Shown here: in pieces, positions 7,799 to 58,674 of the stretch
Position numbering within the stretch: the stretch's first letter is position 1
Layout: each line of letters opens with the position of its first letter
NCBI GenBank assembly: GCA_964016885.1
Contig: OZ024743.1
Location: 361,522,001-361,586,000, forward strand
Source of the DNA: Eledone cirrhosa
Lineage: Eukaryota
Direction: 5' to 3'
Length of the DNA: 64,000 nucleotides
Notes under the pieces: model-generated
What the model was told of the DNA's origin: nothing
Databases searched by the model: none
Seen by the model: only the letters and a program-made list of their open reading frames with translations
Translations under genes and position numbers: made by a program

Positions 7799-7983
7799 AA
7801 ATAATTGTTTCTACTTTTGGCACAAGGCCAGCAATTATCCCAGTGCATTACTGGTACTTTATTTTATCGACCCCGTAAGGATGAAAGGCGAAGTTAACCT
7901 TGGCGGGACTTGAACTCAGAGCATAAAGGGAAGTAACTATATGCTTCAAAGCATGGTGTCCGTCCCTCTACCGATACTGCCAA
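7799..7983 (-). mobile_element. tRNA-derived SINE with Meta-like core
   Basis: B-box GAGTTCAA, core GCCTTTCATCCTTACGGGGTCGATAAAATAAAGTACCAG, and an (ATT)-type tail. More than 10 copies occur in the window. Confidence 0.85.
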
Positions 7984-14388: not shown

Positions 14389-14552
14389 TCGGACGCCATG
14401 CTTTCCAGCATAGTTACGTCCCTTTACGATCTGAGTTCAAATCCCGCCGAGGTTGACTTTGCCTTTCATCCTTACGGGGTCGATAAAATAAAGTACCAGT
14501 AATGCACTGGGTAATTGCTGGCCTTGTGCCTAAAGTAGAAACAATTATTATT
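14389..14552 (+). mobile_element. tRNA-derived SINE (same family)
   Basis: B-box plus Meta-like core. Confidence 0.85.
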
Positions 14553-14742
14553 GGGGGTTTGGCAGTATCGGTCGAGTATCTGACAACAGGCTTTGCAGCA
14601 CAGAGTTACGCCCCTTTCTGACGTGAGTTCAAATCCTGCCGAGGTTAACTTTGCCTTTCATCCTTACAGGGTCGATAAAATAAAGTACCAGTAATGCACT
14701 GGGATAATTGCTGGTCTTGTGCCAAAAGTAGAAACAATTATT
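14553..14742 (+). mobile_element. tRNA-derived SINE (tandem second copy)
   Basis: A-box-like TGGCAGTATCGG, B-box and core. Confidence 0.85.
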
Positions 14743-15021
14743 ATATACATATAAGTGTGTGTGTGTATTGAGTAAAATAACAGAAGGCCAGACTGTTGAA
14801 ATTCTTTCAAAGATTGAAGGAACTTTCCCAGTCCGGTGTCCTGTCATTAATTAACTCTGTTCTCGCACCACCAACAAGATTCAAGATCAAAGATGAATGG
14901 GTTGCATAACGTCGAGTGCTTTTCCTAAATTTACATTATGGTTAACTATATGTAATGATCAGTTCTATATAGTGGGGAACCCCAAACTTAAATGAATATA
15001 TATATATATATATATATATAT

Positions 15022-15206
15022 AACGAAGGAAATGTGGTAAGGAACCAGGTGGACCATAACGCACCAAAGTACTCAATACTTGAGGTAGTAGAGTGGGTAA
15101 TAGGAACCAGTAAGACCCCGACAGCTGAGCTCAAGCCGTTTCGACGGCTTGGTCCAGAATTAGCCGTCGAAACGGCTTGAGCTCAGCTGTCGGGGTCTTA
15201 CTGGTT

Positions 15207-15211
<5 letters not shown>
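15022..15211. mobile_element. Tailed mini-palindrome of the same PLE family as 32555-35797
   Basis: Tail 15022-15099, arms 15100-15149 and 15162-15211. Both termini match those of the 3.2 kb palindrome. Flanked by (TA)n. Confidence 0.9.
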
Positions 15212-15252
<41 letters not shown>

Positions 15253-15294
15253 TTTGCTTAAACTTTAATCTGTTATTTTAATATATATATATAT

Positions 15295-15565: not shown

Positions 15566-15597
15566 TAATATATATATATAAGATATATGCAAGAAAT

Positions 15598-16044
15598 GCT
15601 TAGGATTATCCTGAATGCAGTAATGGTTAATTACTATACTAGATAGAGTCGACGTACGGTGAGGGGTTACTCAACGAGTTATGAAAGAATAGTTAAAGAA
15701 ACTCGGTTTCCGATTCTTCTGTATTCCGGAGTGTAGATAAAGAATGAATAATAAAACAGGTAGACATCATAAAAAGGTAATTTATTCCGAGTGCTTACAT
15801 ATGTTTCTACAGTAGTTACACAGCCTTGTCATACTATGTGCAAATTGGTAGTTATTTATTTGCAGATATTCAATTTTCAAATGCTGTTTATCCTACCGTG
15901 TCTTCAGAGCAAATGGCTAAAGTGTAAATTCCCTTGTATTTTTTAAGGGGAAGATAGGGTAGAAAAGGAAGAAAGAAAGAAGGGTAGAGAGAGAGAGAGA
16001 GAGAGAGAGAAAAAAAGAGAGAGAGAGAGAGAGAGAGTGAGAGA

Positions 16045-16082
<38 letters not shown>

Positions 16083-16852
16083 TGTAGGGGTCGGAGAAAT
16101 GGGAGAGAGTGGTTTGAAGAATACAGATAGCTTAATCTAAATGTTGTGATAGGGTTCCAACAAGTGGTTTTATTATACTGCTTACTCTCAAAGTGACAAC
16201 TTCGGTATTGTGTTGATATTGTCAAGTCAAGTTTGGAATTATTTATTGCCACAGAGAGCAGGTTGATAGATATGGAGAAGGAGGGAGATAGACAGAGGGC
16301 GAGAGAGAGAGAGAGAAAGGGAGAGAGAGAAAGAGAGATAGAGAGAGAGAGAGCGGACAGAAAAAAGCTAAGAGAAGGGGAAGGAAAGGCGGTATACACC
16401 GAGTTCGTAGTTGTAGTTTGCTGATCACACCTCAGTATCCATTTATTATGATAAGCAAGGTACTCGCTTGTAGTGTGTGTGTGGGAAGGGGGGGGGGGGG
16501 GTTAATATAGTTAGGAAGTAGTTATTGAGTGAAATTAGTTAGCGAGAAAGTGGTGTAGTAATCTCGGTTCATGTTGTTATTTTATAGTGAGAACATTTAG
16601 CCTTCAGTTAGTATAACGATCGTTCGATTCTGTCATTTAGTAAGTTGTTTTTAGATTTCAAGATATAAAAGAGTTCAAGGTTGCATGATCTGCAGTACTT
16701 CAATCCACTCCGATATGCACTAGCGCTGGATAATTTGTCCCATTTCAAGGTGAACTGCCGGTTATATTCACGGAGTTGCCAGGTCTTATTGGCGAGCGTG
16801 GTTACAAAACGGTGTTCCGGATGTTTAATCGAAAATCGATGACGATACCGAT
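15598..16852 (-). mobile_element. 5'-truncated Naiad-type PLE: GIY-YIG C-terminus, UTR and pLTR
   Basis: The minus strand reads RYRHRFSIKHPEHRFVTTLANKTWQLREYNRQFTLKW..SASAYRSGLKYCRSCNLEL. The pLTR matches 63488-63784. Confidence 0.8.
15792..15911 (-). ncRNA. Type I hammerhead ribozyme with long stem II
   Basis: TGCT-CTGAAGA-CACGGTAG...CTACTGTA-GAA-ACATATGT-A-AGCA. Confidence 0.75.
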
Positions 16853-16853
16853 G

Positions 16854-16919
<66 letters not shown>

Positions 16920-19255: not shown

Positions 19256-19750
<495 letters not shown>

Positions 19751-19819
19751 CGCTCGTGCCCTGTCGCAGCCTTCCCGGCTATATATATATATATATATAC
19801 ACGCACACATATTTTTTTC

Positions 19820-20032
19820 AGTGTAGTCTGCCTCTGGTGGTAGGGTCCGTACTGTAGATAGAACTCAATGTAATCGGATGGCGAATAACATAGTGAACTC
19901 TGTAGAGAAGTTCCGTGTTCCGCCGAGTTAATTCCTTAGATACAGAGTCAGATATTAGGTGATAAATTAACAATGAAAATAAAAACAACTTAACTTCGTT
20001 GTCTTTTTATATTTTCATTGTTAATTTAATAC

Positions 20033-20038
<6 letters not shown>
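19820..20038. mobile_element. Tailed mini-palindrome related to the 20112-32197 family
   Basis: The tail shares GAACTCAATGTAATC and TACAGAGTCA with the family tail. The hairpin at 19953-20038 runs into (TA)n. Confidence 0.65.
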
Positions 20039-20120
<82 letters not shown>

Positions 20121-20165
20121 TAAACAAATAATGAATAAACAATTCCTTATATTAAACAAAAAAAG

Positions 20166-20319
20166 TTCATTATTTAACGATCGTTTCTAGGATATATATG
20201 TGTTAGAGTTGGCATGCATATTCAACAGATCTATGTACAAAATTATACAAAATTATACAAACTATCAAGATTAAATATACATACCAACACATATATACGC
20301 CGTCTTCAGAAATAATGAA
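20166..20319 (-). ncRNA. Hammerhead ribozyme (mirror of 31858-32011)
   Basis: Reverse complement of the right-arm HHR. Confidence 0.8.
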
Positions 20320-21205
20320 ATATATTTATTGATAATAACAACAATTCAAACTTTCAGGTCCGTTTGGGAACAAAATTGACCAATGAAAATACAAAAGGTT
20401 TAATGCCGTTCGGTGTGTGTATATACATGTAATAACCCTTACACATATTTTACAAAAATGTATGCACAACCTGTATACTCATACAAAAAGGATGGATGCA
20501 AATACAAAATTTCAAGGTTAATGTCTCTGTAAGTTTATAATGCACAGATAAGATGCGTATAGATACATAAATATGAAATAAGTGTATACACATATTTTCA
20601 TACTAACACATATCCGTACAATCACACATACACGCGCGTATATGCATAAACATACACATAAACTACAAACATACAAACACACACACACCACCACTCACAT
20701 ATATATATGTGGATATAAAATCCTAAGCACATGGATATTAATTCACTCACGTAAACACTGGCACACACATTTAGATAAAGATACAGAAATTAGGTGGGAG
20801 GGGGGGGGGAGGTCAGTATTCAATGGTTTGGGCTGCCTGCTTAATATAGATGTATCTATAAACTAAGAAAATAAAAAATAATAATAAATAATAAATAAAC
20901 ATTAAAAAGGAAAGAAAAGAAAAAGAAAAAAGAAAAAAGAAAAAAGAAATATATCAAGAAAATATATATATATATATATATATACATATATCCACATATA
21001 TATATCTATATATATATATACATACATATACATATACATACACATACATACACACACACACACACATATACATATACACATACACATATACAAACACATA
21101 CATACATATACACACATCCACACTTAGAACATAACATACACACACATATATAAACATATACATATACACACATAGATACAAATACACACATACATATAAA
21201 TACAC

Positions 21206-21272
<67 letters not shown>

Positions 21273-21836
21273 CATACACTCATACATAGGCATATAATCA
21301 CACATACTATATAGACACACATATATATACACACATACATACACATATACCTACACTTACATACATATATACATACAGATATACACATACATACCTATAT
21401 ATACACACAAATACATACAGACATATATACATACATAGAGACAAATACTTACGCATCTATATATCGGTATATACATACAAACACCACTACACTCTCACAC
21501 AACTCAGACATACAAAGAAAAAGGTATATACCCATACACATATACATATACAAATAGAGAAACATATACATATATATATATATATACACATATATATACA
21601 TACATATATATATATATATACATACATATACATATACACATACACACATACACATATAAACACATACATACATGTACACACACATAGATATATATACACA
21701 CACATACACACATACACATACATATATAGTCATACACACACATACACCTACACGAACATACACATACACATATACAAAGATATATATACACACACACACA
21801 CACATACACACACACACATATATATAAAAAAAATAA

Positions 21837-21903
<67 letters not shown>

Positions 21904-22847
21904 TATACATACATACACATACATACACACATACAAAGACATATATGTACATACATACATATACATAGATACATACACATACATACATACATATATATAT
22001 ACACACATAGACATATACATACATACACACACAACATACATACACACATATATACTCATACATAGAATTAGATATATAAACATACATACATACGCACTTA
22101 CATATACTCATATATACCAATACAAACGCATCCATATATGCGTATATACATAGAAACACCACTACACCCTCATCCAATTCAGATATACAAAGAAAAAGGC
22201 ATATACATATACATATATACACGCATCAATAGAGATATATATACACATATATATATATATATATATATGTGTGTACACACACACACTTATATACATATAC
22301 CCACACACACATACAACCATAAATACACATACAAACACCCACATATATATATATATACACACACATAAAAGACAGACATGCACACATATATATTTTTTTA
22401 CACATATATATACACATATATATACATATACACACCCTCACATATACACTTACACATAAGTTATATTATAATAATAAATAATATATATATATATACACAT
22501 ACATATATATATATATATACATATATACATATACATATATATATATATACACACACATACATATGAATATAGACATATAAACACACATAGATATATATAC
22601 ATACATATATACACATACATATACACACACACACATATACACATTCACATATACATGTGTGTGCATACACACATATATATACATACACACATATACACAT
22701 AAACACATATATGTGTATACATGCACACACACACATATATCCACATAGATACGAAGATATACATATAAATAGAGAGACATACATATATATACACACACAC
22801 ACATATACATACATACATACACACACATATATATATATACATATACA

Positions 22848-22899
<52 letters not shown>

Positions 22900-23700
22900 C
22901 ACATACAGACATACACATACACATACATATACACACATGCATATATACACACACATACACATACATACACACATATATATATATATACACACAATCATAC
23001 ATTCTTATTTGCATGCGCATATATGTATTTTTACATTCAGATATAAATACCCAAATATATATACACCTACCTACATATATATTCATACATACACGCTTAC
23101 AAACACAGATGATAATAGTATGGGGGAAAGGGGGGGGGGTGGAGAAGGGGATTATAGTAAATATATGTTTCAAGAAACATAGAATATTATCTGTATCTAG
23201 ATCCAATGTATGTTTATACATAGTATCAGTGTTAGGAAATATAATAAACAAGGAATAAGGCAAAATTTATGCAATTCAAAATAAATAAGTATACCATTAA
23301 TTATATGTTAACTAAACTAAAGATAGTTAACATATTGATTTCTAAGGTGTAAATTAGTTAGGTTTATAATATTTGAAGCAGAATTTTGAAGTTAAATAGT
23401 AGTAGAGTATTAATTATAGTATAACTAAATTAAAGTTAATAACTTTATGGTATCAATATTAGGAAATGAATTTAGTAATAGGGAAAAAACAAATAAAGTA
23501 TTACATCGGTAGTAGAATATAAAATATAGGTTAATTAAATTAAAAATTATATATTTATTTCTATAGTATATGTTAATTAGGTATATAATAAATTAAACAG
23601 ATATTGTATTTTATCAATAGCAGAATATAATTATATGCAAATAGAAATCAAAATTAATACATATACATATACATATACATACACATACATATATACACAT

Positions 23701-23739
<39 letters not shown>

Positions 23740-24248
23740 TACGCACATACATACACATACACATATACATATACATATTTTTTCAAAAATTGCAAAGAAT
23801 ATATTAACTAGGTATAAATCCAAAACACATCCCATTCTATGATTAGATGACATTCTGCAATTCGTCTGTATAAGGATATTAATTTTAAGCCAATTAAATT
23901 AAATTTTTAGGTTGATTAAAATTAAAACCAAATTATAAATATATTTCTAAAATGTATATTAATTAGGTCTATATTACTAAAAATTATTTCTCTGTCATTG
24001 GATACACTATATTTTGTTATATTTTATCTGTAAAAGAATTATAATAAAAAAAATTATAATAAAAGGTTTAAATAAATTAAAATTAATCTATAAATTAAAA
24101 TACTAAGTATATATTAGTAATATTTAAAGGTTTTTCACAATTTATGATTACATAATATTTTATATTCTCATCTGTAATAGAATTTTAATTAAATTAAATT
24201 TATAGGTTAACTAACATTTAAATTAAATTAATTTCTAAAATAATGTTA

Positions 24249-26617
24249 TTAATTAGGTTTATAATATTTAAATGTTTTTTTTAGTTTATGATTACACGAT
24301 ATAATTAATTCCTGTCGTTTATTTAATAGGATATCCTTAGATTTCATTATTTCAAATAGTTCTTGGGAACATAATCTACATTCATTTCTATTATTTTGAT
24401 AAGGGGTGGCTCTTTTGAGCACACTCCAGGTCAAATCATATTCTATATTCTTATTTTTATAACTATTGATTTTTTCTGCTAGAGATGTTGTATTAGCCAG
24501 TGCGGCATTTTTAAAACTATGCTTATGGGTATTAAACCTTGTCTTAAAATTGTTAGAGGTAGCTCCTATATATGAGCAAATAGAATCTTTAGTTTTAACA
24601 TTACATTTATAGACTATGTTGTTAACAAGACAATTCCCTTTTAATGGGCAGTTTGCTTTGTTTCTACAGTTACAACCTTTCGTTAATTCTGTATTTGAGG
24701 AGATATTATGGTTAATTTGATGTACTGGTGGTATACTTATGGTTTTCTTACATTTATATGCATTATAGGCACTTATATTTTGTTTTATGTTATTTGTTGT
24801 AGAGTATGAGAATTTAACTGTAGACCTATTTAAGATTTGATGGTATTTGTGGTTTGGCGGGAAGTTTTTCTCTAGGATATAAAAAAATTTTTTAGCAATA
24901 TTATCCTTAATTTGTAAATTAAATGGAGCATTATACCAAGTAACCCGTCTATTACGGTTTCTATGTTGTTTATTATTTTTATTATTTTTATAGGTTGTAT
25001 CGTGATTTTTACTAGGAGGATTAATGTTAATGAACTCACCACAACCATTTTTAGTTATATTTGTAGATTTAGGTGTTTTATCCTTTTTATTAGGAGTTTT
25101 ATTAATATGATAAGTAGTTTTTTGAGAGTTACTATACTTTATATTAGAAGATTTGGTATTTTGGGGTATAGTGTGGGTGGCATTTAGGTGTGTACTTTTC
25201 ATTTGGTGTTTGTTGGTAATATTAGGTTGTATGCTTTCAGTATTTTTAGTAGAAGGTATATATTCTAATCTATTTTTGTGGCCACTTCTATCTAGAGCTT
25301 CGTTATAGAAGGTCGCATTTTTATCAAATACATCCTGGTTAGAAGAAAGGTTAGAAATTCTAAGTGATATATTATATGCAAGGTTTTTAAGGATAGATTT
25401 AGGGTGATTAGATTGTGAGTGTATGTAATGTAAGTTTTGGTTTGGTTTATGGTAAGGTTGGTAGATACCCGTAGCTAAATCTAAAGTTATATCTAGGAAA
25501 TTTACTACTTTACTTGTTTTTTCAAATGTAATATTAAGATTATAATAGTCTTTAAGGAAAGTTCTAATATGTTTTTTGTTTTTTTCAATTTCTGAAAGGC
25601 TAAGGTTGTTAGAAAGAAGAAGACAGTCATCACGATATAAACCACCTTTGAGGTGGGGAAAGGAGGCATTTATGTTGAAAAGGAGAAAGAGGCCCACAAG
25701 ATCAGTAATTTGGGCGGAATCGCTTGAACCCATAGTAATATCAAAAAGATTACTATATGTGTTTCTGGTCCAGTATTCATTCTGAAATTCAATAAGTGTT
25801 AGTCTAGCATGTGTAATAATATTAATGTCATCCAAAGTTAAGTTAGATCTATTTTTAGCAAATATCAATGCTTTGTTCAGGAGTATAGGTGATATAGAAC
25901 AATAGTAATTATCTATATCAAATTGTAGAAATGAAGCAGAAGATTTACATCTAATATTTTTAAACCAGTTAATTACCTGGGAGGTGTTTTCCCAGAGTGG
26001 TAAAATAACGTGTTTTCTTATTTGTGGGATGACTCTATCCAAAATTTTTTTGCTAATTATTCCAATATCTGATTTGGAGGGACATATAAGTCTAATAGAA
26101 GGATTTGAGTTAAAATTTGATTTATGATCCTTCAGGTTGAAGTGTGGTCTTTTCAATGCCAAAGGTTCAGTTCTATCTTCAATGTTTAGTTTTTTTACTA
26201 TGTTGTGTGTTTTGTTGTTGATGTTGGTGAGTGACGCATTATTAGATTTTTTATAATTTTTTCTGAGTTCTTTATATATGAATTCATTATAATGCTCAAT
26301 ATCCATATGATACAAGTTACCAGTTTTGTCCGAGTGGACATGGATTTTTTTAGACTTTTTTAGGTCCAATAGGGTAGAATCAAGGTCCTTTTGAAAGACG
26401 GATTTATACTTTTTAAATTTGAGGTGTTTAATTAAATTAAAAAGGTCTTTCTCGAAGTCTTCAAGTAAAAAGTTGTGTGGTGGATTCTTGTAAGTATTGA
26501 AATCATACATATATTTCCGATCTGCTTGTTTAGATTTTCTATCGAAGTGGTAGGCTCTCCATCTAACCCTTCTGATAAAATTATTAGTTTTCTGAATCAT
26601 AAGGAGTAAGAAGTCAA
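24249..26617 (-). CDS. PLE reverse transcriptase plus C-terminal GIY-YIG endonuclease (Naiad-type), slightly 5'-truncated
   Basis: FIRRVRWRA, LKDHK..RLICPSKSDIG, QFDIDNYY, ITMGSSDSAQ, LYRDD, GCNCR..CPL..C..IVY, YIGAT, C..C..E and LLNKR. The frame is uninterrupted. The first codons of the track ORF come from the inversion junction. Confidence 0.92.
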
Positions 26618-27892
26618 GAAAAAACAAGTAAAGTAGTAAATTTCCTAGATATAACTTTAGATTTAGCTACGGGTATCTACCAACCTTACCATAAACCAAA
26701 CCAAAACTTACATTACATACACTCACAATCTAATCACCCTAAATCTATCCTTAAAAACCTTGCATATAATATATCACTTAGAATTTCTAACCTTTCTTCT
26801 AACCAGGATGTATTTGATAAAAATGCGACCTTCTATAACGAAGCTCTAGATAGAAGTGGCCACAAAAATAGATTAGAATATATACCTTCTACTAAAAATA
26901 CTGAAAGCATACAACCTAATATTACCAACAAACACCAAATGAAAAGTACACACCTAAATGCCACCCACACTATACCCCAAAATACCAAATCTTCTAATAT
27001 AAAGTATAGTAACTCTCAAAAAACTACTTATCATATTAATAAAACTCCTAATAAAAAGGATAAAACACCTAAATCTACAAATATAACTAAAAATGGTTGT
27101 GGTGAGTTCATTAACATTAATCCTCCTAGTAAAAATCACGATACAACCTATAAAAATAATAAAAATAATAAACAACATAGAAACCGTAATAGACGGGTTA
27201 CTTGGTATAATGCTCCATTTAATTTACAAATTAAGGATAATATTGCTAAAAAAATTTTTTATATCCTAGAGAAAAACTTCCCGCCAAACCACAAATACCA
27301 TCAAATCTTAAATAGGTCTACAGTTAAATTCTCATACTCTACAACAAATAACATAAAACAAAATATAAGTGCCTATAATGCATATAAATGTAAGAAAACC
27401 ATAAGTATACCACCAGTACATCAAATTAACCATAATATCTCCTCAAATACAGAATTAACGAAAGGTTGTAACTGTAGAAACAAAGCAAACTGCCCATTAA
27501 AAGGGAATTGTCTTGTTAACAACATAGTCTATAAATGTAATGTTAAAACTAAAGATTCTATTTGCTCATATATAAGAGCTACCTCTAACAATTTTAAGAC
27601 AAGGTTTAATACCCATAAGCATAGTTTTAAAAATGCCGCACTGGCTAATACAACATCTCTAGCAGAAAAAATCAATAGTTATAAAAATAAGAATATAGAA
27701 TATGATTTGACCTGGAGTGTGCTCAAAAGAGCCACCCCTTATCAAAATAATAGAAATGAATGTAGATTATGTTCCCAAGAACTATTTGAAATAATGAAAT
27801 CTAAGGATATCCTATTAAATAAACGACAGGAATTAATTATATCGTGTAATCATTAACTAAAAAAAACATTTAAATATTATAAACCTAATTAA
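26618..27892 (+). pseudogene. Inverted 5'-truncated copy of the same ORF (thumb plus GIY-YIG)
   Basis: Near-identical to the left copy, but with YIG to YIR, FF to IF and an early TAA at 27854-27856. Confidence 0.9.
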
Positions 27893-28401
27893 TAACATTA
27901 TTTTAGAAATTAATTTAATTTAAATGTTAGTTAACCTATAAATTTAATTTAATTAAAATTCTATTACAGATGAGAATATAAAATATTATGTAATCATAAA
28001 TTGTGAAAAACCTTTAAATATTACTAATATATACTTAGTATTTTAATTTATAGATTAATTTTAATTTATTTAAACCTTTTATTATAATTTTTTTTATTAT
28101 AATTCTTTTACAGATAAAATATAACAAAATATAGTGTATCCAATGACAGAGAAATAATTTTTAGTAATATAGACCTAATTAATATACATTTTAGAAATAT
28201 ATTTATAATTTGGTTTTAATTTTAATCAACCTAAAAATTTAATTTAATTGGCTTAAAATTAATATCCTTATACAGACGAATTGCAGAATGTCATCTAATC
28301 ATAGAATGGGATGTGTTTTGGATTTATACCTAGTTAATATATTCTTTGCAATTTTTGAAAAAATATGTATATGTATATGTGTATGTGTATGTATGTGCGT
28401 A

Positions 28402-28440
<39 letters not shown>

Positions 28441-29242
28441 ATGTGTATATATGTATGTGTATGTATATGTATATGTATATGTATTAATTTTGATTTCTAT
28501 TTGCATATAATTATATTCTGCTATTGATAAAATACAATATCTGTTTAATTTATTATATACCTAATTAACATATACTATAGAAATAAATATATAATTTTTA
28601 ATTTAATTAACCTATATTTTATATTCTACTACCGATGTAATACTTTATTTGTTTTTTCCCTATTACTAAATTCATTTCCTAATATTGATACCATAAAGTT
28701 ATTAACTTTAATTTAGTTATACTATAATTAATACTCTACTACTATTTAACTTCAAAATTCTGCTTCAAATATTATAAACCTAACTAATTTACACCTTAGA
28801 AATCAATATGTTAACTATCTTTAGTTTAGTTAACATATAATTAATGGTATACTTATTTATTTTGAATTGCATAAATTTTGCCTTATTCCTTGTTTATTAT
28901 ATTTCCTAACACTGATACTATTTATAAACATACATTGGATCTAGATACAGATAATATTCTATGTTTCTTGAAACATATATTTACTATAATCCCCTTCTCC
29001 AACCCCCCCCCCTTTCCCCCATACTATTATCATCTGTGTTTGTAAGCGTGTATGTATGAATATATATGTAGGTAGGTGTATATATATTTGGGTATTTATA
29101 TCTGAATGTAAAAATACATATATGCGCATGCAAATAAGAATGTATGATTGTGTGTATATATATATATATGTGTGTATGTATGTGTATGTGTGTGTATATA
29201 TGCATGTGTGTATATGTATGTGTATGTGTATGTCTGTATGTG

Positions 29243-29301
<59 letters not shown>

Positions 29302-30264
29302 GTATATGTATATATATATATGTGTGTGTATGTATGTATGTATATGTGTGTGTGTGTATATATATGTATGTCTCTCTATTTATATGTATATCTTCGTATC
29401 TATGTGGATATATGTGTGTGTGTGCATGTATACACATATATGTGTTTATGTGCATATGTGTGTATGTATATATATGTGTGTATGCACACACATGTATATG
29501 TGAATGTGTATATGTGTGTGTGTGTATATGTATGTGTATATATGTATGTATATATATCTATGTGTGTTTATATGTCTATATTCATATGTATGTGTGTGTA
29601 TATATATATATATGTATATGTATATATGTATATATATATATATATGTATGTGTATATATATATATATTATTTATTATTATAATATAACTTATGTGTAAGT
29701 GTATATGTGAGGGTGTGTATATGTATATATATGTGTATATATATGTGTAAAAAAATATATATGTGTGCATGTCTGTCTTTTATGTGTGTGTATATATATA
29801 TATATGTGTATATATTTATATATGTGGGTGTTTGTATGTGTATTTATGGTTGTATGTGTGTGTGGGTATATGTATATAAGTGTGTGTGTGTACACACATA
29901 TATATATATATATATATATATGTGTATATATATCTCTATTGATGCGTGTATATATGTATATGTATATGCCTTTTTCTTTGTATATCTGAATTGGATGAGG
30001 GTGTAGTGGTGTTTCTATGTATATACGCATATATGGATGCGTTTGTATTGGTATATATGAGTATATGTAAGTGCGTATGTATGTATGTTTATATATCTAA
30101 TTCTATGTATGAGTATATATGTGTGTATGTATGTTGTGTGTGTATGTATGTATATGTCTATGTGTGTATATATATATGTGTGTATGTATGTGTATGTATC
30201 TATGTATATGTATGTATGTACATATATGTCTTTGTATGTGTGTATGTATGTGTATGTATGTATA

Positions 30265-30329
<65 letters not shown>

Positions 30330-30897
30330 TTATTTTTTTTATATATATGTGTGTGTGTGTATGTGTGTGTGTGTGTGTATATATATCTTTGTATATGTGT
30401 ATGTGTATGTTCGTGTAGGTGTATGTGTGTGTATGACTATATATGTATGTGTATGTGTGTATGTGTGTGTATATATATCTATGTGTGTGTACATGTATGT
30501 ATGTGTTTATATGTGTATGTGTGTATGTGTATATGTATATGTATGTATATATATATATATATGTATGTATATATATGTGTATATATATATATATATATAT
30601 GTATATGTTTCTCTATTTGTATATGTATATGTGTATGGGTATATACCTTTTTCTTTGTATGTCTGAGTTGTGTGAGAGTGTAGTGGTGTTTGTATGTATA
30701 TACCGATATATAGATGCGTAAGTATTTGTCTCTATGTATGTATATATGTCTGTATGTATTTGTGTGTATATATAGGTATGTATGTGTATATCTGTATGTA
30801 TATATGTATGTAAGTGTAGGTATATGTGTATGTATGTGTGTATATATATGTGTGTCTATATAGTATGTGTGATTATATGCCTATGTATGAGTGTATG

Positions 30898-30968
<71 letters not shown>

Positions 30969-31183
30969 GTGTATTTATATGTATGTGTGTATTTGTATCT
31001 ATGTGTGTATATGTATATGTTTATATATGTGTGTGTATGTTATGTTCTAAGTGTGGATGTGTGTATATGTATGTATGTGTTTGTATATGTGTATGTGTAT
31101 ATGTATATGTGTGTGTGTGTGTGTATGTATGTGTATGTATATGTATATGTATGTATATATATATATAGATATATATATGTGGA

Positions 31184-31214
<31 letters not shown>

Positions 31215-31857
31215 TTTCTTGATATATTTCTTTTTTCTTTTTTCTTTTTTCTTTTTCTTTTCTTTCCTTTTTAATGTTTATTTATTATTTATTATTATTT
31301 TTTATTTTCTTAGTTTATAGATACATCTATATTAAGCAGGCAGCCCAAACCATTGAATACTGACCTCTCCCCCCCCCTCCCACCTAATTTCTGTATCTTT
31401 ATCTAAATGTGTGTGCCAGTGTTTACGTGAGTGAATTAATATCCATGTGCTTAGGATTTTATATCCACATATATATATGTGAGTGGTGGTGTGTGTGTGT
31501 TTGTATGTTTGTAGTTTATGTGTATGTTTATGCATATACGCGCGTGTATGTGTGATTGTACGGATATGTGTTAGTATGAAAATATGTGTATACACTTATT
31601 TCATATTTATGTATCTATACGCATCTTATCTGTGCATTATAAACTTACAGAGACATTAACCTTGAAATTTTGTATTTGCATCCATCCTTTTTGTATGAGT
31701 ATACAGGTTGTGCATACATTTTTGTAAAATATGTGTAAGGGTTATTACATGTATATACACACACCGAACGGCATTAAACCTTTTGTATTTTCATTGGTCA
31801 ATTTTGTTCCCAAACGGACCTGAAAGTTTGAATTGTTGTTATTATCAATAAATATAT

Positions 31858-32011
31858 TTCATTATTTCTGAAGACGGCGTATATATGTGTTGGTATGTAT
31901 ATTTAATCTTGATAGTTTGTATAATTTTGTATAATTTTGTACATAGATCTGTTGAATATGCATGCCAACTCTAACACATATATATCCTAGAAACGATCGT
32001 TAAATAATGAA
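31858..32011 (+). ncRNA. Type I hammerhead ribozyme with about 115 nt stem II
   Basis: TTCATTATTT-CTGAAGA-..TATATATGTGTTGG...CTAACACATATATA..-GAA-ACGATCGT-T-AAATAATGAA. It has a 10 bp stem I, a palindromic stem III and a GUU triplet. Confidence 0.82.
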
Positions 32012-32196
32012 CTTTTTTTGTTTAATATAAGGAATTGTTTATTCATTATTTGTTTAATATTTTATCTTGACTCTGTATACCGTTTATCTTTCACCGAAAG
32101 TGATTTTTCATTACATTTCTTCTTTCCATGATATCCGGAATACATTGAGTTCTTCATACGGATTGGACACTACCGTAAACTCTTGGTAGATTTATC

Positions 32197-32535
<339 letters not shown>

Positions 32536-34161
32536 CATATATATATATATATATAACGAAGGAAATGTGGTAAGGAACCAGGTGGACCATAACGCACCAA
32601 AGTACTCAATACTTGAGGTAGTAGAGTGGGTAATAGGAACCAGTAAGACCCCGACAGCTGAGCTCAAGCCGTTTCGACGGCTAATTCTGGACTAAATGAA
32701 CATTTATCCTGGTATTTAAATAGCCGATCTTCTCAAGGGGTAATTCCATATATGGTCAAAGTGATTGTCAAAAATCAGTAGTAATTCTGTGGTTGCAAAT
32801 TAGTAGGGGAGATGGTGGCTAAACCTGCCAGTAGGAGAAAGAGGGGAGGGGGTGGAGTAGACCCAATCAAGCGTTGGTAGTGCCAGCTACAGCTGGGCAT
32901 GAGGTCAAAGAAGATACAGGGGAGGGGGAGGGGGAGGAAGTCGGAACGGTAGGTAGAACAATGGGGGGTAGAAATAGGAAAGAAAAAATACTGAGAGTGA
33001 AGGAAAGCAAATAAGTGTAAAGAAAAAATTAAATTCTACGACCTAGGTGTCAGGCTATTGTTAGGCGAGAATAAAATAAAGAAAGAAAGAAAGAAGTAAA
33101 TAAATAAATAAATAAATAAATAAGGAAATAAGTATAGAACTAGGTGGGACGAATTAGGCAAGGACCCTTTTAAGAGGTATAAGTACGTAAATGATACGGT
33201 GACTGGTCAACAAAAGGGGCCAAAATACTAAAGAGACTACCACGAAATAAACAATAAAGGTTTCCATCCCGGGCCAGCAACGACCCAGTGCAGCAAAGTG
33301 AACTTGTACGACATAATAATTCTGAGTCCCGAGAAAAATATATACTAATGCTAACTCTAAAAGATCTAAAACAAGCTACATGAAAGTTCGTACGAAATAA
33401 AGGTAGAATACGGAGAAATAAGTTCAGAATCCACCCCGCCCAGAAGAAAAGCGAAGCAAGAAATACTGAAACGAAAAAAATAAGGCATAAGTGCCACTAA
33501 GAAATATAGAGGGCACAGAGAATAGTGGGAGCGGTCGGAAAAGGGGGGCAAGTATCCGGGGTCTAAGCCAACTGCTATAAAGGGCGGAGTCCGCCAAATC
33601 TATCAAAGACTAGGGGAGGGGGGAGTGGGGGTACTAAGGCTACATGGGGCCAAAGGGCAGCCTCGGGTGGGCGAGAAAAGACGCCGACAAAGGAGAAGAG
33701 CTGGGGTAGAAGGACAAAGGAGAGAGGGGGGAAGGAAATAAAGGATGCGATAAATGAATACAAAGAAGATCTTACGTCTTCCTTGGCAAGCAGGGGTTAC
33801 CCATTGCAAAATCGGCAACTGGGGTGTTATAGCCCTAGTCTACCCCCCCGGGTCATTATGGGGTTTGAGGGCGAGGTAAGTCCTACGCAATCTATGTTTA
33901 CATGCAGTAACCAGTTCATCTTTCTTGTTTAGGAGTTGGTCCGTCGAAAACAGCATTTGTAAAGTTTCCTCCGAGCATAAATTGCACGGACGGCGTCCTC
34001 CCGTGTAAGAATTGGCTCTGGACAGTAATCTCCAAGTGAGATCATAGGTGATGTTGTTGTCCTTGAGGTCCCATATGTGGCCCGAAAGTGTAGTGGCGTG
34101 ACGCCGGGCCGGGTTTCGGAAGGTATGTCTATGTTGGTATAGCCGGGTCTTCTATCTTCCG

Positions 34162-34590
34162 GATAGATCTATTTGCCCACTCGACAATAGATGCAGAGAC
34201 CGTAATGTGATCTACCAGTGCAACGTGAGGACGGATACCTCCAACAAAGCCTATATAGGACTTACCGCATGTGACTTCAAGACCCGGCTATACCAACATA
34301 GACATACCTTCCGAAACCCGGCCCGGCGTCACGCCACTACACTTTCGGGCCACATATGGGACCTCAAGGACAACAACATCACCTATGATCTCACTTGGAG
34401 ATTACTGTCCAGAGCCAATTCTTACACGGGAGGACGCCGTCCGTGCAATTTATGCTCGGAGGAAACTTTACAAATGCTGTTTTCGACGGACCAACTCCTA
34501 AACAAGAAAGATGAACTGGTTACTGCATGTAAACATAGATTGCGTAGGACTTACCTCGCCCTCAAACCCCATAATGACCCGGGGGGGTAG
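34162..34590 (+). pseudogene. GIY-YIG endonuclease domain of a 5'-truncated PLE
   Basis: DRSICPLDNRCRDRNVIYQCNV..AYIGLT..FKTRLYQH..CNLCSEE..LLNKKDEL. The RT is absent. Confidence 0.88.
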
Positions 34591-35688
34591 ACTAGGGCTA
34601 TAACACCCCAGTTGCCGATTTTGCAATGGGTAACCCCTGCTTGCCAAGGAAGACGTAAGATCTTCTTTGTATTCATTTATCGCATCCTTTATTTCCTTCC
34701 CCCCTCTCTCCTTTGTCCTTCTACCCCAGCTCTTCTCCTTTGTCGGCGTCTTTTCTCGCCCACCCGAGGCTGCCCTTTGGCCCCATGTAGCCTTAGTACC
34801 CCCACTCCCCCCTCCCCTAGTCTTTGATAGATTTGGCGGACTCCGCCCTTTATAGCAGTTGGCTTAGACCCCGGATACTTGCCCCCCTTTTCCGACCGCT
34901 CCCACTATTCTCTGTGCCCTCTATATTTCTTAGTGGCACTTATGCCTTATTTTTTTCGTTTCAGTATTTCTTGCTTCGCTTTTCTTCTGGGCGGGGTGGA
35001 TTCTGAACTTATTTCTCCGTATTCTACCTTTATTTCGTACGAACTTTCATGTAGCTTGTTTTAGATCTTTTAGAGTTAGCATTAGTATATATTTTTCTCG
35101 GGACTCAGAATTATTATGTCGTACAAGTTCACTTTGCTGCACTGGGTCGTTGCTGGCCCGGGATGGAAACCTTTATTGTTTATTTCGTGGTAGTCTCTTT
35201 AGTATTTTGGCCCCTTTTGTTGACCAGTCACCGTATCATTTACGTACTTATACCTCTTAAAAGGGTCCTTGCCTAATTCGTCCCACCTAGTTCTATACTT
35301 ATTTCCTTATTTATTTATTTATTTATTTATTTACTTCTTTCTTTCTTTCTTTATTTTATTCTCGCCTAACAATAGCCTGACACCTAGGTCGTAGAATTTA
35401 ATTTTTTCTTTACACTTATTTGCTTTCCTTCACTCTCAGTATTTTTTCTTTCCTATTTCTACCCCCCATTGTTCTACCTACCGTTCCGACTTCCTCCCCC
35501 TCCCCCTCCCCTGTATCTTCTTTGACCTCATGCCCAGCTGTAGCTGGCACTACCAACGCTTGATTGGGTCTACTCCACCCCCTCCCCTCTTTCTCCTACT
35601 GGCAGGTTTAGCCACCATCTCCCCTACTAATTTGCAACCACAGAATTACTACTGATTTTTGACAATCACTTTGACCATATATGGAATT

Positions 35689-35782
35689 ACCCCTTGAGAA
35701 GATCGGCTATTTAAATACCAGGATAAATGTTCATTTAGTCCAGAATTAGCCGTCGAAACGGCTTGAGCTCAGCTGTCGGGGT
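35689..35782 (+). ncRNA. Type I hammerhead ribozyme, U3-A8 variant (mirror copy at about 32648-32741 on minus)
   Basis: ACCCC-TTGAGAA-GATCGGCTA...TAGCCGTC-GAA-ACGGC-TTGAGCTCA-GCTGT-C-GGGGT. All three stems pair, with GUC cleavage after 35777. Confidence 0.85.
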
Positions 35783-35792
35783 CTTACTGGTT

Positions 35793-35852
<60 letters not shown>

Positions 35853-36335: not shown

Positions 36336-36384
<49 letters not shown>

Positions 36385-36387
<3 letters not shown>

Positions 36388-36449
36388 CCCACTCTACTAC
36401 CTCAAGTATTGCGTTATGGTCCACCTGGTTCCTTACCACATTTCCTTCG

Positions 36450-36451
<2 letters not shown>
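36385..36451 (+). mobile_element. Solo tail of the 32555-35797 family between (TA)n tracts
   Basis: Reverse complement of 32555-32632 with a deletion of about 12 bp. Confidence 0.85.
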
Positions 36452-36481
<30 letters not shown>

Positions 36482-36485
<4 letters not shown>

Positions 36486-38611
36486 AAATAACAGGAGGCC
36501 GGACTTGTGTAAATCATTGAAAGTTTTATTATACTATGATCATTTCAATGACCGGGTTCCGTATGAATCCGGTGATATCATCAGGTATTCGAAATATAAT
36601 AAATGAATGTAACAGATAAAAACCATGGGGCTGAAAATCATAGACCCGAGGACGACCGACCATCTAGCATCTTCCACTTTAGCCGGTCGACCGCAAGTCT
36701 ACTTAAGGCTATCTGATGAGGGGGCGAAAGCTTATAATGTGCTACTAACCTCCCGGTCAAAGAGAAGAAAAGAAAAAAAGTCAGAAAGAAAGAAGAAAAG
36801 TCAGCGTTAATGTCACGCTACAATCAGGCTAGGAATTGCCGCGAAAAATGTTATTCTAAAGAACCTATATCTTAACAGAGGTATATATTATAACAGAGGT
36901 ATATATAGTGGGCGTCTGCATGGTATAATGAGTGAACAGAAAATTGGAACGTTCATTTTTTGTTTAGATTTATAGGATGAAAATAAAAATAAAAAATTAA
37001 ATTAAAGATTGAATTATAAAATTTAAAAAAAATTAGGAAATTAAAAATTAAACGTTTAATAAAAATTTAAGGTTTGGGTTGCGAGATTTAGTTAAAAAAT
37101 TTACAGAGAGAGTCGTTTATGAAAAGACTTTAAGTTTATTATTAGAGATCCTCGATTAGTTTTCAGGGTGGGATATAGAGTAAAGGTTAAGTCCTTGTTT
37201 AGCAGTCAAACAGCACGCGACGACTGCAGACTCCGGCCGGCCCATCCTAACTACGTGTCAGCCATTCCGAGTGCAATCGTCTAGCGAAAGATATGGAAAT
37301 CAATTTTTCCGAGCACTCGAGGAATGTAAATGTTCTAGGCTTCGGATGTGCTAGTGGGAAGTCAGCCATTGTCGTTAGGCCATCTTTATACCAAACGAGT
37401 ACTATTAATTTACACAGGAGGGGGATTTGTTTAAGTGCCAGTAGACGGTGGCATGATACAGCTAATAGTTATGATCAGGCCTAGAATTTAACGGTACTAT
37501 ATGGCGGTCAAAAATGGCGGCGCCGCGGGCCCTGGGGGGAAGTAAGTCGCTCCGAGTAATTTCCATTACCGAAAGAAGGGGAAATTTATTTTTCCAAGCA
37601 CTCAAGGGAGGCTTATGCACCAGAGCGCCGGGCGCGCAGCCAGGAAAACCACTACACCTGTCGGATCATCGCGTGTAATCAATTATAAAACCCGATGAAA
37701 AGCGCAAATAGACTATATCTAGGTCCCGTGATAGTCCGGGTTATAAGTATTGTGGTTCTCAGGGGGAGATATTCTAGTGTCGTGTGCTAATGAGTACAAT
37801 GATAAGTACTTAATGAGAGTAAAGCGAGTAAAAACCTAAATAAAAGGAACAGTAAGCAAAAAACAAAAAATACATAGATAAATAAAGGCAGAATACGAAG
37901 ATAAAAACACATTAATAAAGTAAAAAGGTAGAAATAAATAAACAAATAAATAAATAAATAAAGCGCCGTCATAGCTAGGGTGGTGGTGGAGTAAAACGGA
38001 AGTATATAAGAACATATCGGAGAAATCAAAACACAGAGGAAATACAATATAGATCAAATTTGCAGTTAGATAATGCATATAGATACGGAATCAGTGTGTG
38101 TTCGAGTCTCAGAATTGAGTGTGAATTCCAAAGGCCATGAAGTATAGGGTAGAGAATTCAGTCAATACAGTACAGTACAATACAGGTTATGTTATAATCC
38201 GTAGAATGTTGTCGAAGTCTGAATATTCCGAGAGGGTATTAGCATTGGGCCAGGTGGCGGTAGACAAAGCGCAGAGTAGCCAAAATCCGAATGGTGAGTA
38301 GATCAAGTCAGTCCCATGCCGCTGTTCATTATTACACCTGGAAGTGCTCAACATTTCAGGAGCATTATTTATTTAGGTTTGAAGGTTCACCACTGGATAG
38401 AGTTGGTCATTCCGTATGGTCAATCTTGATGTAATAATATGGAGAGTACTCAACGTAAAGCAGCGCAACCGTCTTCGTTTGTGTAGTTGGTGATGCGAGT
38501 ACGGAGTTAATTATTATAATAAAATAACAGGAGGATGGACTTGTGTAAATCCTTGAAAGGTTAATTATACTATGATCATTTCAATGACCGGGTACCGTAT
38601 GAATCTGGTCA
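36482..38611 (-). mobile_element. 2.1 kb non-coding element with HHR-bearing direct terminal repeats
   Basis: 36482-36573 is repeated at about 38518-38609. There is no credible ORF. The left end fuses with (TA)n. Confidence 0.75.
36531..36588 (-). ncRNA. Type I hammerhead ribozyme
   Basis: ATAC-CTGATGA-TATCACCGGATTC-ATAC-GGAACCCGGTCATT-GAA-ATGATCAT-A-GTAT. Confidence 0.8.
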
Positions 38612-38669
38612 TGTATGTGTGTGTATATATGTGTGTTTATTTATTTATATATATATATATAAACATATA

Positions 38670-38893
38670 TGTATGTAAAAGGTATACAGAAATAACAACA
38701 CAATCGGTACAGTATATGGAAGGTATATATAAGGTTAACGCTTGATATAGCAGGAAAAGGGTCTTAACTTTTCGGACGCTAGTCTTTCATCAGAAGAAAG
38801 AATGATAAATAAGATAGATTGAGGGGACGGGCGGGATGAAATTGGAAAAAATGTCTTTAGATAAAAATAACAAGTCCATTCATGTTGACATCT
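38670..38893 (-). mobile_element. Solo pLTR with minimal hammerhead (second copy of 32311-32535)
   Basis: The minus strand reads TCTTCTGATGAAAGACTAGCGTCCGAAAAGTTAAGA. Confidence 0.75.
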
Positions 38894-38935
38894 CTCACAC
38901 ACAGACACACATACACACACACACGAACACACACA

Positions 38936-39046
<111 letters not shown>

Positions 39047-39622
39047 AGGAGGTTATAGTTCACTTGAAGCATTGTGTAATGAGGTATAAACGTTAGAATA
39101 TGTGTAATAAGGCCAAGACAATGCAGATATGGACATAGAAAAAAGAATGCAATAGTGAAAGATATTGATGAGAATTCGTCTTTCACCTTGAATTTATTTA
39201 AATGTCCTTAATTTTCGAGATAATATCTCTTCTTCGGAGGGAAGTAAAAGTCTCAGACCAGCGTCTAAATTTCCAATGAAGCCATGCTGACCGGAAATAG
39301 TATAGAGTTCTAACTTTAATATCAAAGAATTAAAATTAGGTGGGTAAAGAGTAGTCTCCCTTTAAGAGGGGTTTGTTTATGTTTTTGTTGTGTTTTTTAA
39401 AATTTTATATGCGTGCCTGTATATGTGTGTGGGAGAAAGCATGAAGGTGTAGGTATGTGGGTGTGTGTGTGTGAGTGTGGGAAGATAGGTCTAATCGTAA
39501 AAGTGGGGGGTAGGTGTTATCTGGTGTTAGAACTGGTTTTGTGTGTGTATGTGTGAGAGAGAATAAGTGGAGGTGTGCGCGTGCGTGTGTGTGGGGTGTG
39601 TAAAGTGGGGCTAGAGGCCCTA

Positions 39623-41351
39623 TCAGGTTATAAATTGGGTGTTGAGCTCTAGTCTATTATTGATTGGTGGATGTGTTCTATCTATAATGAGTGCTTCCTT
39701 GATTCTAAGATTGCCGAGGTTTCTTTCCTTAGTTTCTATCCTAACTGTTATGTTTTTATCAGTGTTTTTGCATTTAACTAGGTGTTTCTTAAATGAGGAA
39801 GCGTTAGTATTGAGGTGTTCTTTTATTCTTATGTGGAGTGGTCTGGTGGTGCTACCTACGTAGAAGTTGTTGCATTTGTCACACTCTAGTCTGTAAACTA
39901 CGTAAGCCTGGTGGCATAGGTCTGTGTCGTTGATGGGGCAGTTGGCTAGTCTGCAGCAGTTGTCATGTCTGGTGGAGTGTCTCTTAGCTAGCCGTCCACG
40001 CAAAGAAGGACCCGAATGGGCCAGTTGAATATCCAGACCTTCTCGTCTGATGGCTCTGCGGATGGCTGTTGTTGTTTCTTCACTGAAGTGTGGGAGCTTC
40101 AGGAAGCAAGTGTTAGTGCCTCGGGTGTGGTGTCCTCTGTTCTTTCTGGCACGGTTTGTGGTGGATGTCGTGTATCCGTTCAGTTTGAGTACTTCCAGGA
40201 AATGTGTGGTGTGTGTGTCTCGGTCTCTGGCGTCGGTGCATTTGTTCTTGATACGTGCCAGTTCGTTCTTTATGTATCCGAACTTGGCACCGAGTGGGAG
40301 GGCCGATCTGAAATGTACGAACAGGTCCCTGCTGGCGGCTTTTTTATAGAAGCAGGTGTGGATGTTTCCTTCCTCTGTTACCCTGAGTTGGAAGTCCAGC
40401 AGGGATAGGGATCCGCGGTCATCGGGGTGTTCTATGCTGAACTTTATACTGGCGTCCATGCTGGAGAATGTTGTGTATATTTTCTCTGCCTCCTCACGGG
40501 ATGATGTAAGGATGAGTATGTCATCTACATATCGGGTGAAGAAGGCATGGGAATGGCAGGTGTTGAGGGCTCGGCATTCTAGTTGGTTCATGTAAGTGAT
40601 GGCCAGCAGGCCAGAGAGGCTGGATCCCATGGGTAATCCTGTTGTCTGTCTGTATGTGTGGTGGTGGAAGGTGAAGTACGTGTTGTCGACTGTGAAGGAC
40701 AAAAGTTGGTGTATGTCCGTCGGGTGGAGGCCGTAGCAGTGGATGTTCTCTGCGACCACGCAGTCCGTCAATAAATCGACAGCTGGGTGAGCGGGGACTG
40801 TAGTGTAGAGGGAGACAACGTCGAGGCTAAAAGCGTATTTATTAAGTTTAAGTTGTTCTGGCTGGAGTTGGTGTAATCTACGTATAACTTCGTCGGAGCT
40901 ACTGACATGTCCGGGGAAGGTGGAGAGTAGAGGCTTGAGGACCTGGGAGAGAAGCCAGGAAATTTTGTGTAGGGGTCCTTCTATGCTAGAGACAATGGGT
41001 CTTATATGCGTCTTAGTGCTATTCTTGTGGGTCTTGATGAGGTGGTAGAAAGTGGGCAGTCTGCTATTTCTAGTGGTGTAGTTGAGTTTAATTTTATTCG
41101 GGAGTTGTCTTCTCCTACAGATATCGAACCAAATGGAGTTGGTCTGTTTTTCGATTTGGGCTGCGGTCATGTCCGGGATCACTGTGTACAGTTCACTGTC
41201 GCTTAGGTGTTCGAAGGCTAGGTTATTGTATGTGGCTTGAGAGATGACGCAGAACTCTTTACCTTTGTCGGATGGTAAGTAAATAAGTTCTTTATTCCGT
41301 AGGTTCTTCAGGGCGAGTTGTTGTGTCCTGGAGAGGTTAGGGGCCATCTTC
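39623..41351 (-). CDS. Inverted 5'-truncated copy of the PLE RT-GIY-YIG ORF
   Basis: The protein is identical to the plus copy from KMAPNLS onward. Confidence 0.85.
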
Positions 41352-43856: not shown

Positions 43857-44237
43857 TAGGGCCTCTAGCCCCACTTTACACACCCCACACACACGCACGC
43901 GCACACCTCCACTTATTCTCTCTCACACATACACACACAAAACCAGTTCTAACACCAGATAACACCTACCCCCCACTTTTACGATTAGACCTATCTTCCC
44001 ACACTCACACACACACACCCACATACCTACACCTTCATGCTTTCTCCCACACACATATACAGGCACGCATATAAAATTTTAAAAAACACAACAAAAACAT
44101 AAACAAACCCCTCTTAAAGGGAGACTACTCTTTACCCACCTAATTTTAATTCTTTGATATTAAAGTTAGAACTCTATACTATTTCCGGTCAGCATGGCTT
44201 CATTGGAAATTTAGACGCTGGTCTGAGACTTTTACTT

Positions 44238-44274
44238 CCCTCCGAAGAAGAGATATTATCTCGAAAATTAAGGA
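44238..44274 (+). ncRNA. Minimal hammerhead, U4C variant (mirror copy at about 39205-39241 on minus)
   Basis: CCT-CCGAAGA-A-GAGAT-ATT-ATCTC-GAA-AATT-A-AGG. Confidence 0.65.
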
Positions 44275-45228: not shown

Positions 45229-45254
45229 TTGACACTTGTGGTGAGTTGTCTTAA

Positions 45255-57424: not shown

Positions 57425-57440
57425 TATTATTATTATTATT

Positions 57441-57762: not shown

Positions 57763-57805
<43 letters not shown>

Positions 57806-58560: not shown

Positions 58561-58563
58561 ATA

Positions 58564-58674
<111 letters not shown>

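Follow-up and report, generated by a model that had tools for sequence, protein, structure and literature searches.

Copies of Penelope-like retrotransposons (PLEs) that are truncated at the 5' end, carry an inverted copy at that end and have a tail of 30-40 bp at one end only are presented as typical in the text of PMC8557442, PMC3846280 and PMC8969392. According to the text of PMC8557442, the diagnostic features of the Hydra clade of PLEs are an RWK-like motif, DKT, CxCX5C, CxxC/CxH around a conserved E and N, absence of CCHH and a (TA)n target; the same text notes that Penelope-13_HM has, at its 5' end, a 5'-truncated copy in inverted orientation and that Hydra-1_Obim has a common terminus. 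For PAc, which is a Poseidon element and belongs to another clade, the text of PMC11167929 describes that in vitro the protein introduces a nick into each strand of the target and extends both, and that RT starts at two internal RNA sites which bound the tail. How the inverted copy is formed is called undefined in the text of PMC8557442 and the later steps are called unvalidated in that of PMC11167929; the available text of the latter holds no explanation of the inverted arm, and the word "inverted" is used in it once, for a blocking group. The locus described here was found in a 64-kb stretch of DNA, all of which was analysed and is called the window in this text. We consider the finding to be real and to be largely explained by published PLE biology, and what it adds are countable regularities on the inversion step, as the window gives predictions that can be counted on tail polarity, arm-length coupling, TA overlap and tail-only inserts.

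The 190-bp mini and the 3.2-kb large copy

A unit of 190 bp, called the mini here, and a unit of 3,243 bp, called the large copy, are both bounded by (TA)n in the window. Their parts, together with the sequences within and beside them that are discussed below, are these.

14996-15021, no strand: (TA)n target run to the left of the mini
15022-15099, minus: mini tail, 78 nt, carried by the inverted arm alone and unpaired; it is the element's long 3' end and is identical to 32555-32632
15100-15149, minus: mini inverted arm, 50 bp, perfect
15150-15161, plus: mini loop, 12 nt, of which 10 nt extend the right arm and 2 nt (TG) are the junction
15162-15211, plus: mini tailless arm with the short end GGTTCC/TAT and the 3' half of the hammerhead only
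15209-15248, no strand: (TA)n target run to the right of the mini, 3 nt common to the element
32555-32632, minus: large copy tail, 78 nt
32633-34151, minus: large copy inverted arm, 1,519 bp, 0 mismatches to the right arm
34152-34278, plus: large copy loop, 127 nt, in frame with the right arm
34162-34590, plus: P0001, C-terminal GIY-YIG endonuclease fragment, Hydra-type CxxC-E...N-CxH, 5'-truncated, without RT
34279-35797, plus: large copy tailless arm with the end of the ORF, the 3' UTR and the short end
35689-35782, plus: type I hammerhead predicted by pattern and fold, with a U3-A8 core, the cut site GUC at 35777 and its mirror on the minus strand at 32653
36383-36451, plus: tail-only copy between two (TA)n runs, starting in the same TAT as the short end

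When the two units were compared, 15022-15149 of the mini was the same as 32555-32682 of the large copy at 128 of 128 positions, and 15149-15211 matched 35735-35797 at 62 of 63, the final 60 nt being exact and the single difference lying at the junction. On both sides the exact identity ends where the shorter (TA)n run ends. The preliminary description was thus correct in that the mini and the large copy have identical ends next to (TA)n, and it was also correct in placing the common end 19 nt past the predicted cleavage site, as GGTTCCTA ends at 35796 and the GUC is at 35777. The 16-mer AACGAAGGAAATGTGG is present exactly at 15022 (+) and 32555 (+), the two copies that had been listed, and at a third exact site, 36436-36451 (-), that had been missed; together with one match that has 3 mismatches this makes four matches in the 64-kb window, which was reached in 0 of 100 shuffles. 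The inversion points do differ, as had been stated: the mini has arms of 50 bp and a loop of 12 nt with its turn point at an AGCCGT-CGAA-ACGGCT hairpin, whereas the large copy has arms of 1,519 bp and a loop of 127 nt that opens, at the junction, with a short TCTATC/GATAGA fold-back. Both had been called palindromes, and inverted arms are indeed present in both, but neither is symmetric from end to end: by fold and comparison, the 78-nt tail at 15022-15099 and at 32555-32632 is unpaired and is carried by the left arm and not by the right arm. Since the left arms carry 78 nt that have no partner, the two ends of each unit are different positions, a long end and a short end, in the 3' region of the element. 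CTGGTTCCT (32556-32645, minus strand) is found at the short end and is repeated near the long end; a motif common to the short site and the long end was present in three of five families (null fractions <0.03) and absent in two. In all three copies of the family of the mini, (TA)n flanks both sides.

Past the (TA)n runs the flanks of the mini and the large copy are unrelated, and therefore the mini is not a segmental duplicate of the large locus. In a BLAST of flank against flank there were microsatellite-like matches only, plus one match of 48 nt at 75%, which belongs to an older repeat family that lies to the left of the mini but to the right of the tail-only copy and in a different order. 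The mini as a duplicated and deleted derivative of the large copy had been named earlier as the thing to check; as the flanks are not duplicates, flank duplication as the source of the mini is ruled out by this comparison and the earlier proposal of independent insertions with sequence-defined termini is upheld. A plasmid BLAST of the mini gave no match and was uninformative. To the right of the mini, between (TA)n runs, there is a segment of 32 bp (15249-15280), of which 22 nt recur after (TA)n at 63979-64000, and this segment is possibly the end or a tail-only remnant of another family.

From the published PLE layout and the two start sites mapped in vitro, shared termini with variable turn points would be expected, and since this layout is already known the shared ends are unsurprising to a PLE specialist. 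That fixed unequal ends are the known tail signature of PLEs had been overlooked in the preliminary description.

Endonuclease fragment and assignment to the Hydra clade

The fragment P0001 carries VIY...YIG, and it aligned with the C-terminus of P0002, the 805-aa RT-EN frame in 20114-32199, at 43% over 136 aa (E 2e-39), and was barely similar to the other RT-EN frame, P0003. Among the atlas look-alikes is a GIY-YIG cluster at 0.96. Pfam recognised no family for P0001 or P0002, and a search for longer relatives of the fragment gave 49 candidates of which 0 were significant. The homologues of P0002 amounted to 34 matches, and P0002 and its homologues align with P0001 at 30-43%. A PLE-type RT has been truncated away in the mini and the large copy, the window holding none for their family; one is present in the relative P0002 and in its homologues. 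RWR, DKT and CxCX5C are all found in P0002, and of CxCX5C only the last Cys is left in P0001; in both, CxxC-E and N-CxH are present and CCHH is absent, and C115, C118, E121, N134, C143 and H145 are invariant in 5 of 5 aligned sequences. Compared by eye, P0002 follows the Hydra rows of the alignment given in the supplement text of PMC8557442. The PLE layout, an inverted 5'-truncated copy with a tail at one end, is present in the mini and in the large copy; as for direct pseudo-LTRs, no copy of the family in the window is long enough for them, and they are not required of truncated copies. Judged from the sequence, the mini is very probably a separate and very heavily 5'-truncated insertion of a Hydra-clade PLE, arranged head to head with the tail on one arm, and with the same high confidence we take the 3.2-kb unit to be a less truncated insertion of the young family to which the mini belongs.

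Predicted hammerhead ribozyme

A hammerhead at 35689-35782 is plausible. Its predicted parts are a stem I of ACCCC/GGGGU, a core of UUGAGAA...GAAA and the GUC at 35777, and its U3-A8 core variant is reported in Schistosoma PLEs in the text of PMC4209133. A relaxed pattern scan of both strands of the window gave five candidates, two of which are mirror copies of this motif; the MFE fold had the topology of a three-way junction with an unremarkable z-score of 0.21, and Rfam at the gathering threshold gave 0 hammerhead matches in the window. No complete hammerhead was found in the mini, in which the core and the 5' strand of stem I are missing. The predicted cut precedes the short end by 19 nt and the long end by about 98 nt, and ribozyme cleavage was therefore rejected as the cause of either end. 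As both ends lie past the cut site, the template RNA would not have been cut there, and this agrees with the text of PMC11167929, in which unprocessed RNA is the substrate in vitro. The link to the ribozyme that had been implied by measuring the common end from the cut site is weak, as the distance from the cut to the short end is 19 nt here and about 124 nt (163 nt to the long end minus the 39-nt tail) for the candidate motif of the family at 39046-44390.

Tail-only copy and other one-tailed palindromes in the window

The tail-only copy at 36383-36451 has an internal deletion of 12 nt and is otherwise identical to the 78-nt tail; some 590 bp separate it from the large copy, with whose right arm it is in line. 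It may be a by-product of the event that gave rise to the large copy, or it may represent a captured-spacer layout like that of Pen1_Av, and it could also be an ordinary truncation at TA microhomology; TA-type sites number six in the last 250 nt, of which two are inside the tail.

About nine further one-tailed palindromes, some with diverged arms, were seen in the 64-kb window, including the following.

805-1114: possible one-tailed palindrome, short, adjoining (TA)n
1601-1882: short one-tailed palindrome adjoining (TA)n
14773-14993: one-tailed palindrome of an older form, an old mini directly to the left of the 190-bp mini
19800-20035: one-tailed palindrome of an older form, a diverged mini related to the 20114 family
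20114-32199: one-tailed Hydra-type PLE palindrome of 12 kb, with 5.4-kb arms, a 1,094-nt loop, a 134-nt tail on the right, the 805-aa RT-EN frame and a 3' region that is long and rich in microsatellites
39046-44390: one-tailed palindrome of a different PLE clade, with an 857-aa frame (Pfam RVT_1 and GIY-YIG), a 39-nt tail on the left and a candidate hammerhead with a CCGAAGA core, 163 nt from the long end
61370-61670: short one-tailed palindrome adjoining (TA)n, whose minus strand holds a hammerhead-like motif with its cut at 61478
63488-63945: one-tailed mini palindrome, its tail being 140 nt and its loop 1 nt long

Tail lengths among the neighbouring families range from 39 to about 145 nt. 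The arms of three one-tailed palindromes differ by 2, 3 and 15 substitutions, which indicates that these three have aged in the genome. The end of the mini at 19800 and the short end of the 12-kb palindrome are homologous sites, which makes these two palindromes a second pair of a small and a large unit. Relatives that are not inverted also occur: 19370-19780 is a tailed copy and a diverged relative of the 20114 family, and 15580-16858 is a tailed relative of 63488-63945 with a remnant of a Hydra-type endonuclease at 16587-16847. A relative of 14773-14993 at 36479-38612 is a partial tandem that ends at the short site and is without an inverted arm, and this element may have lost an inverted arm later.

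Regularities that bear on the inversion step

Arm lengths were compared within seven palindromes with arms from 50 to 5,412 bp, those at 805, 14773 and 19800 being left out, and in all seven the ratio of the longer to the shorter arm did not exceed 1.34; only 2 of 5,040 re-pairings were as tight. The palindromes had been chosen by eye and by BLAST, a procedure with a bias towards small loops. When inverted pairs with spacers of up to 8 kb were scanned, there was no layout of a short arm with a long arm. Judged from the reading frame or a reference, the loop is an uninterrupted extension of the tailless arm in all four cases in which this could be examined (the mini, 32555, 39046 and 20114), a result that a coin toss would give once in 8 (two-sided) and in which the case of the mini rests on 10-13 nt. 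The overlap of the short end with (TA)n was 3, 4, 3, 2, 6 and 6 nt in six families and hence at least 3 nt in 5 of 6; the chance per site was 0.012-0.26 and about 0.001 when combined by hand (Fisher), the divergent old palindromes at 14773, 19800 and 61370 being left out. Two usable 3' ends are suggested by the tailed non-inverted copies at 15580 and 19370, by the partial tandem ending at the short site (36479-38612) and by the tail-only copy. In the literature that was searched, which is short of older papers and of figures, where the rule may be drawn, we found no description of the polarity rule, of tail-only inserts or of PLE minis misfiled as MITEs.

Proposed mechanism and alternative explanations

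In LINE-1 twin priming, two target nicks prime on one RNA and this gives a 5' inversion. Duplication of the 3' end is not known from L1 inversions; in the present elements this end is duplicated and so an extra fold-back is needed. The best explanation, to which we assign a probability of roughly 0.6, is that there are two priming sites and that the cDNA folds back. The endonuclease would nick both strands of a (TA)n run, and one nick would prime at the distal site and copy the 78-nt tail, while the other would prime at the proximal UAU site, with TA pairing helping, so that the body is copied from RNA that is uncut at the ribozyme. The length at which the body cDNA stops would vary, being about 60 nt in one case and about 1,640 nt in the other; this cDNA would then fold back and copy itself, and the fold-back strand, upon reaching the short end, would run on along the tail cDNA and join the other side of the target. 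The ends would then be set by the two start sites and the size by the turn point of the cDNA. Taken jointly, the steps on tail and body priming, on the turning back of the cDNA and on its joining to the tail cDNA have in our estimate an even chance of being right. Coupling of the arm lengths is what would be expected if a single cDNA had copied itself and not if there had been two independent truncations, and the short hairpin at the junction of the large copy also favours a fold-back. The side on which the loop lies makes the tailless arm the template, yet the copy has 78 extra nt, and hence a further step is needed; a simple fold-back of one cDNA that lacks such a step was rejected, as the copy arm has 78 nt that are absent from the template and, had the start been on the tail side, the loop would have to lie on the other arm. 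A model with two starts would also yield tail-only inserts, tailed and tailless non-inverted copies and the layout of Pen2a_Av. All these mechanistic steps draw on one 64-kb window in which the counts are small, and a further point against them is that PAc started at sites without homology to its target (text of PMC11167929), unlike the TA overlap observed here.

The palindromes are fitted equally well if a cDNA started from the long end forms a full hairpin, which the endonuclease nicks at an internal target-like TAT and which is opened by strand displacement, the short end then being a DNA cut site. This sequence of events would give the observed order of tail, inverted arm, sense loop and tailless arm, the near-equal arms, the loop polarity in 4 of 4 cases and tail-only leftovers; in addition, the context of the short end holds ATT, the motif that PAc prefers to cut in the text of PMC11167929, and the tail is attributed to EN-mediated resolution in that of PMC8557442. 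However, neither a non-inverted copy that ends at the short site (36479-38612) nor the layout of Pen2a_Av, an inverted pLTR with a full ORF (text of PMC3846280), is readily given by it, and the two start sites were mapped in vitro (text of PMC11167929), and we consider it unlikely. We think it less likely again that the mini goes back to the insertion of a longer palindrome whose centre was lost later, which would leave the same ends with a new centre and for which perfect arms of 1.5-2.4 kb are found nearby. Long perfect palindromes tend to lose their centre. Microhomology-mediated deletions are reported in PLE copies in the text of PMC3846280; but a central deletion would have had little time, because the mini equals the large copy at 128/128 and 60/60 positions, and moreover the centre of the mini shares the polarity of the centres of the large palindromes and long perfect palindromes persist in the window.

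The mini could also belong to a non-autonomous family whose 190-nt unit is copied by the PLE protein, since the tail and both ends are kept and non-autonomous PLE derivatives are known (text of PMC8557442 and of bioRxiv 10.64898/2026.07.22.740005). Its junction, however, was found in 1 copy only within 64 kb, and the hammerhead core and the 5' strand of stem I are missing and there is no tandem, so that it is not a retrozyme as defined, and this makes such copying improbable. The mini as a retrozyme was in fact rejected for having no tandem units and no complete hammerhead. For the palindromes to be fold-back artefacts of the library or the assembly speaks that the arms of three large palindromes are 99-100% identical, but the symmetry stops at the element ends, the flanks differ between the two sides and the layout is found again in palindromes whose arms differ by 2, 3 and 15 substitutions; we regard an artefact as highly improbable. 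The mini and the large copy had been called the best control against an artefact, which was an overstatement, as the palindromes of the same layout with diverged arms are better evidence. Hardest of all to credit is that the mini is a true Tc1/mariner-type MITE with a mobility unrelated to PLEs: 15103-15208 does have perfect inverted ends of 47 bp with TA on both sides, but the left TA is element sequence that runs into 78 nt identical to the retroelement and the whole unit is colinear with the 3' end of the PLE. The mini as a MITE was rejected also because the 78-nt one-sided extension belongs to the unit and the termini are therefore not both inverted repeats.

MITE annotation and other repeats in the window

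That such minis would be mis-annotated as MITEs, as had been suggested, is plausible from the sequence, since 15103-15208, which is flanked by TA and whose inverted ends match perfectly over 47 bp, could be called by a structure-based MITE finder. In one octopus annotation MiteFinderII was used and, in the text of PMC13282606, active Penelope families and MITEs are listed, which shows only that the matter can be tested. The window also serves as a warning that some TA-flanked short hairpins that are called MITEs may be retrotransposon ends. A wider and decidedly tentative proposal, which we doubt more than we believe, is that PLE palindromes obey a strict rule by which a long cDNA starts at an internal TA site and folds back and a second short cDNA or an endonuclease nick closes the structure and gives the tail, that failed events leave tail-only inserts between (TA)n, and that Hydra-clade elements seed a continuum of hairpins of 0.2-12 kb, the smallest of which would be an unrecognised share, produced by retrotransposons, of annotated MITEs.

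Other repeats were noted in the window. Two copies of about 220 bp (32316-32536 and 38675-38895) are 91% alike and have the same start, and with a minimal hammerhead in the first they resemble a solo pLTR or a retrozyme monomer. Related units of 0.7 kb at 2233-2912 and 57804-58566, with direct terminal repeats of about 150 bp and located between (TA)n runs, are candidate non-autonomous PLE derivatives. A dispersed repeat of about 185 bp, SINE-like by appearance, is present in at least 12 copies (7800-7983, 14389-14742, 45252-45436, 47713-47908, 55860-56084, 57420-57637, 59814-60051 and others), and fragmented remains of a LINE-type retrotransposon (zf-RVT, RVT_1, Exo_endo_phos) occupy 48045-54476, where there is also a short palindrome at 50250-50338.

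Comparison with known systems

The EN+ PLEs of the Hydra clade (Craig et al. 2021, PMC8557442; Hydra-1_Obim and Penelope-13_HM), as they are described in the text of that article, share with the locus studied here the (TA)n target, a hammerhead near the 3' end, CxxC/CxH and the absence of CCHH. The tail is 78 nt here, whereas 30-40 nt is printed for PLEs in the text of PMC8557442, and the family of the mini differs from the Hydra clade also in the U3-A8 core with a long stem II of its predicted ribozyme and in truncation down to about 60 nt. PAc of Anolis carolinensis (Frangieh et al. 2024, text of PMC11167929) has, like the elements here, two fixed 3' ends that bound the tail and are both past an uncut hammerhead, and its targets are AT-rich; in contrast, it is of another clade and initiates at sites not homologous to the target, whereas the short ends here overlap (TA)n.

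In the text of PMC3846280, Penelope of Adineta vaga resembles the present elements in its head-to-head inverted repeats, its palindromes at the junction and its optional tail on one arm, and self-priming is proposed for it; in Pen1_Av the last repeat is set apart by captured host DNA, which recalls the tail-only copy and its distance of 590 bp to the large element. The Adineta vaga families differ in that what is inverted is a pLTR, next to a full ORF, in having target duplications of 8-10 bp and in that the self-priming is on an antisense template. Finally, the non-LTR retrozymes are, according to the text of bioRxiv 10.64898/2026.07.22.740005, short, non-coding and derived from the terminal region of a PLE just like the mini, but they are tandem repeats with complete type I hammerheads, whereas the mini has an inverted structure and holds half a hammerhead.
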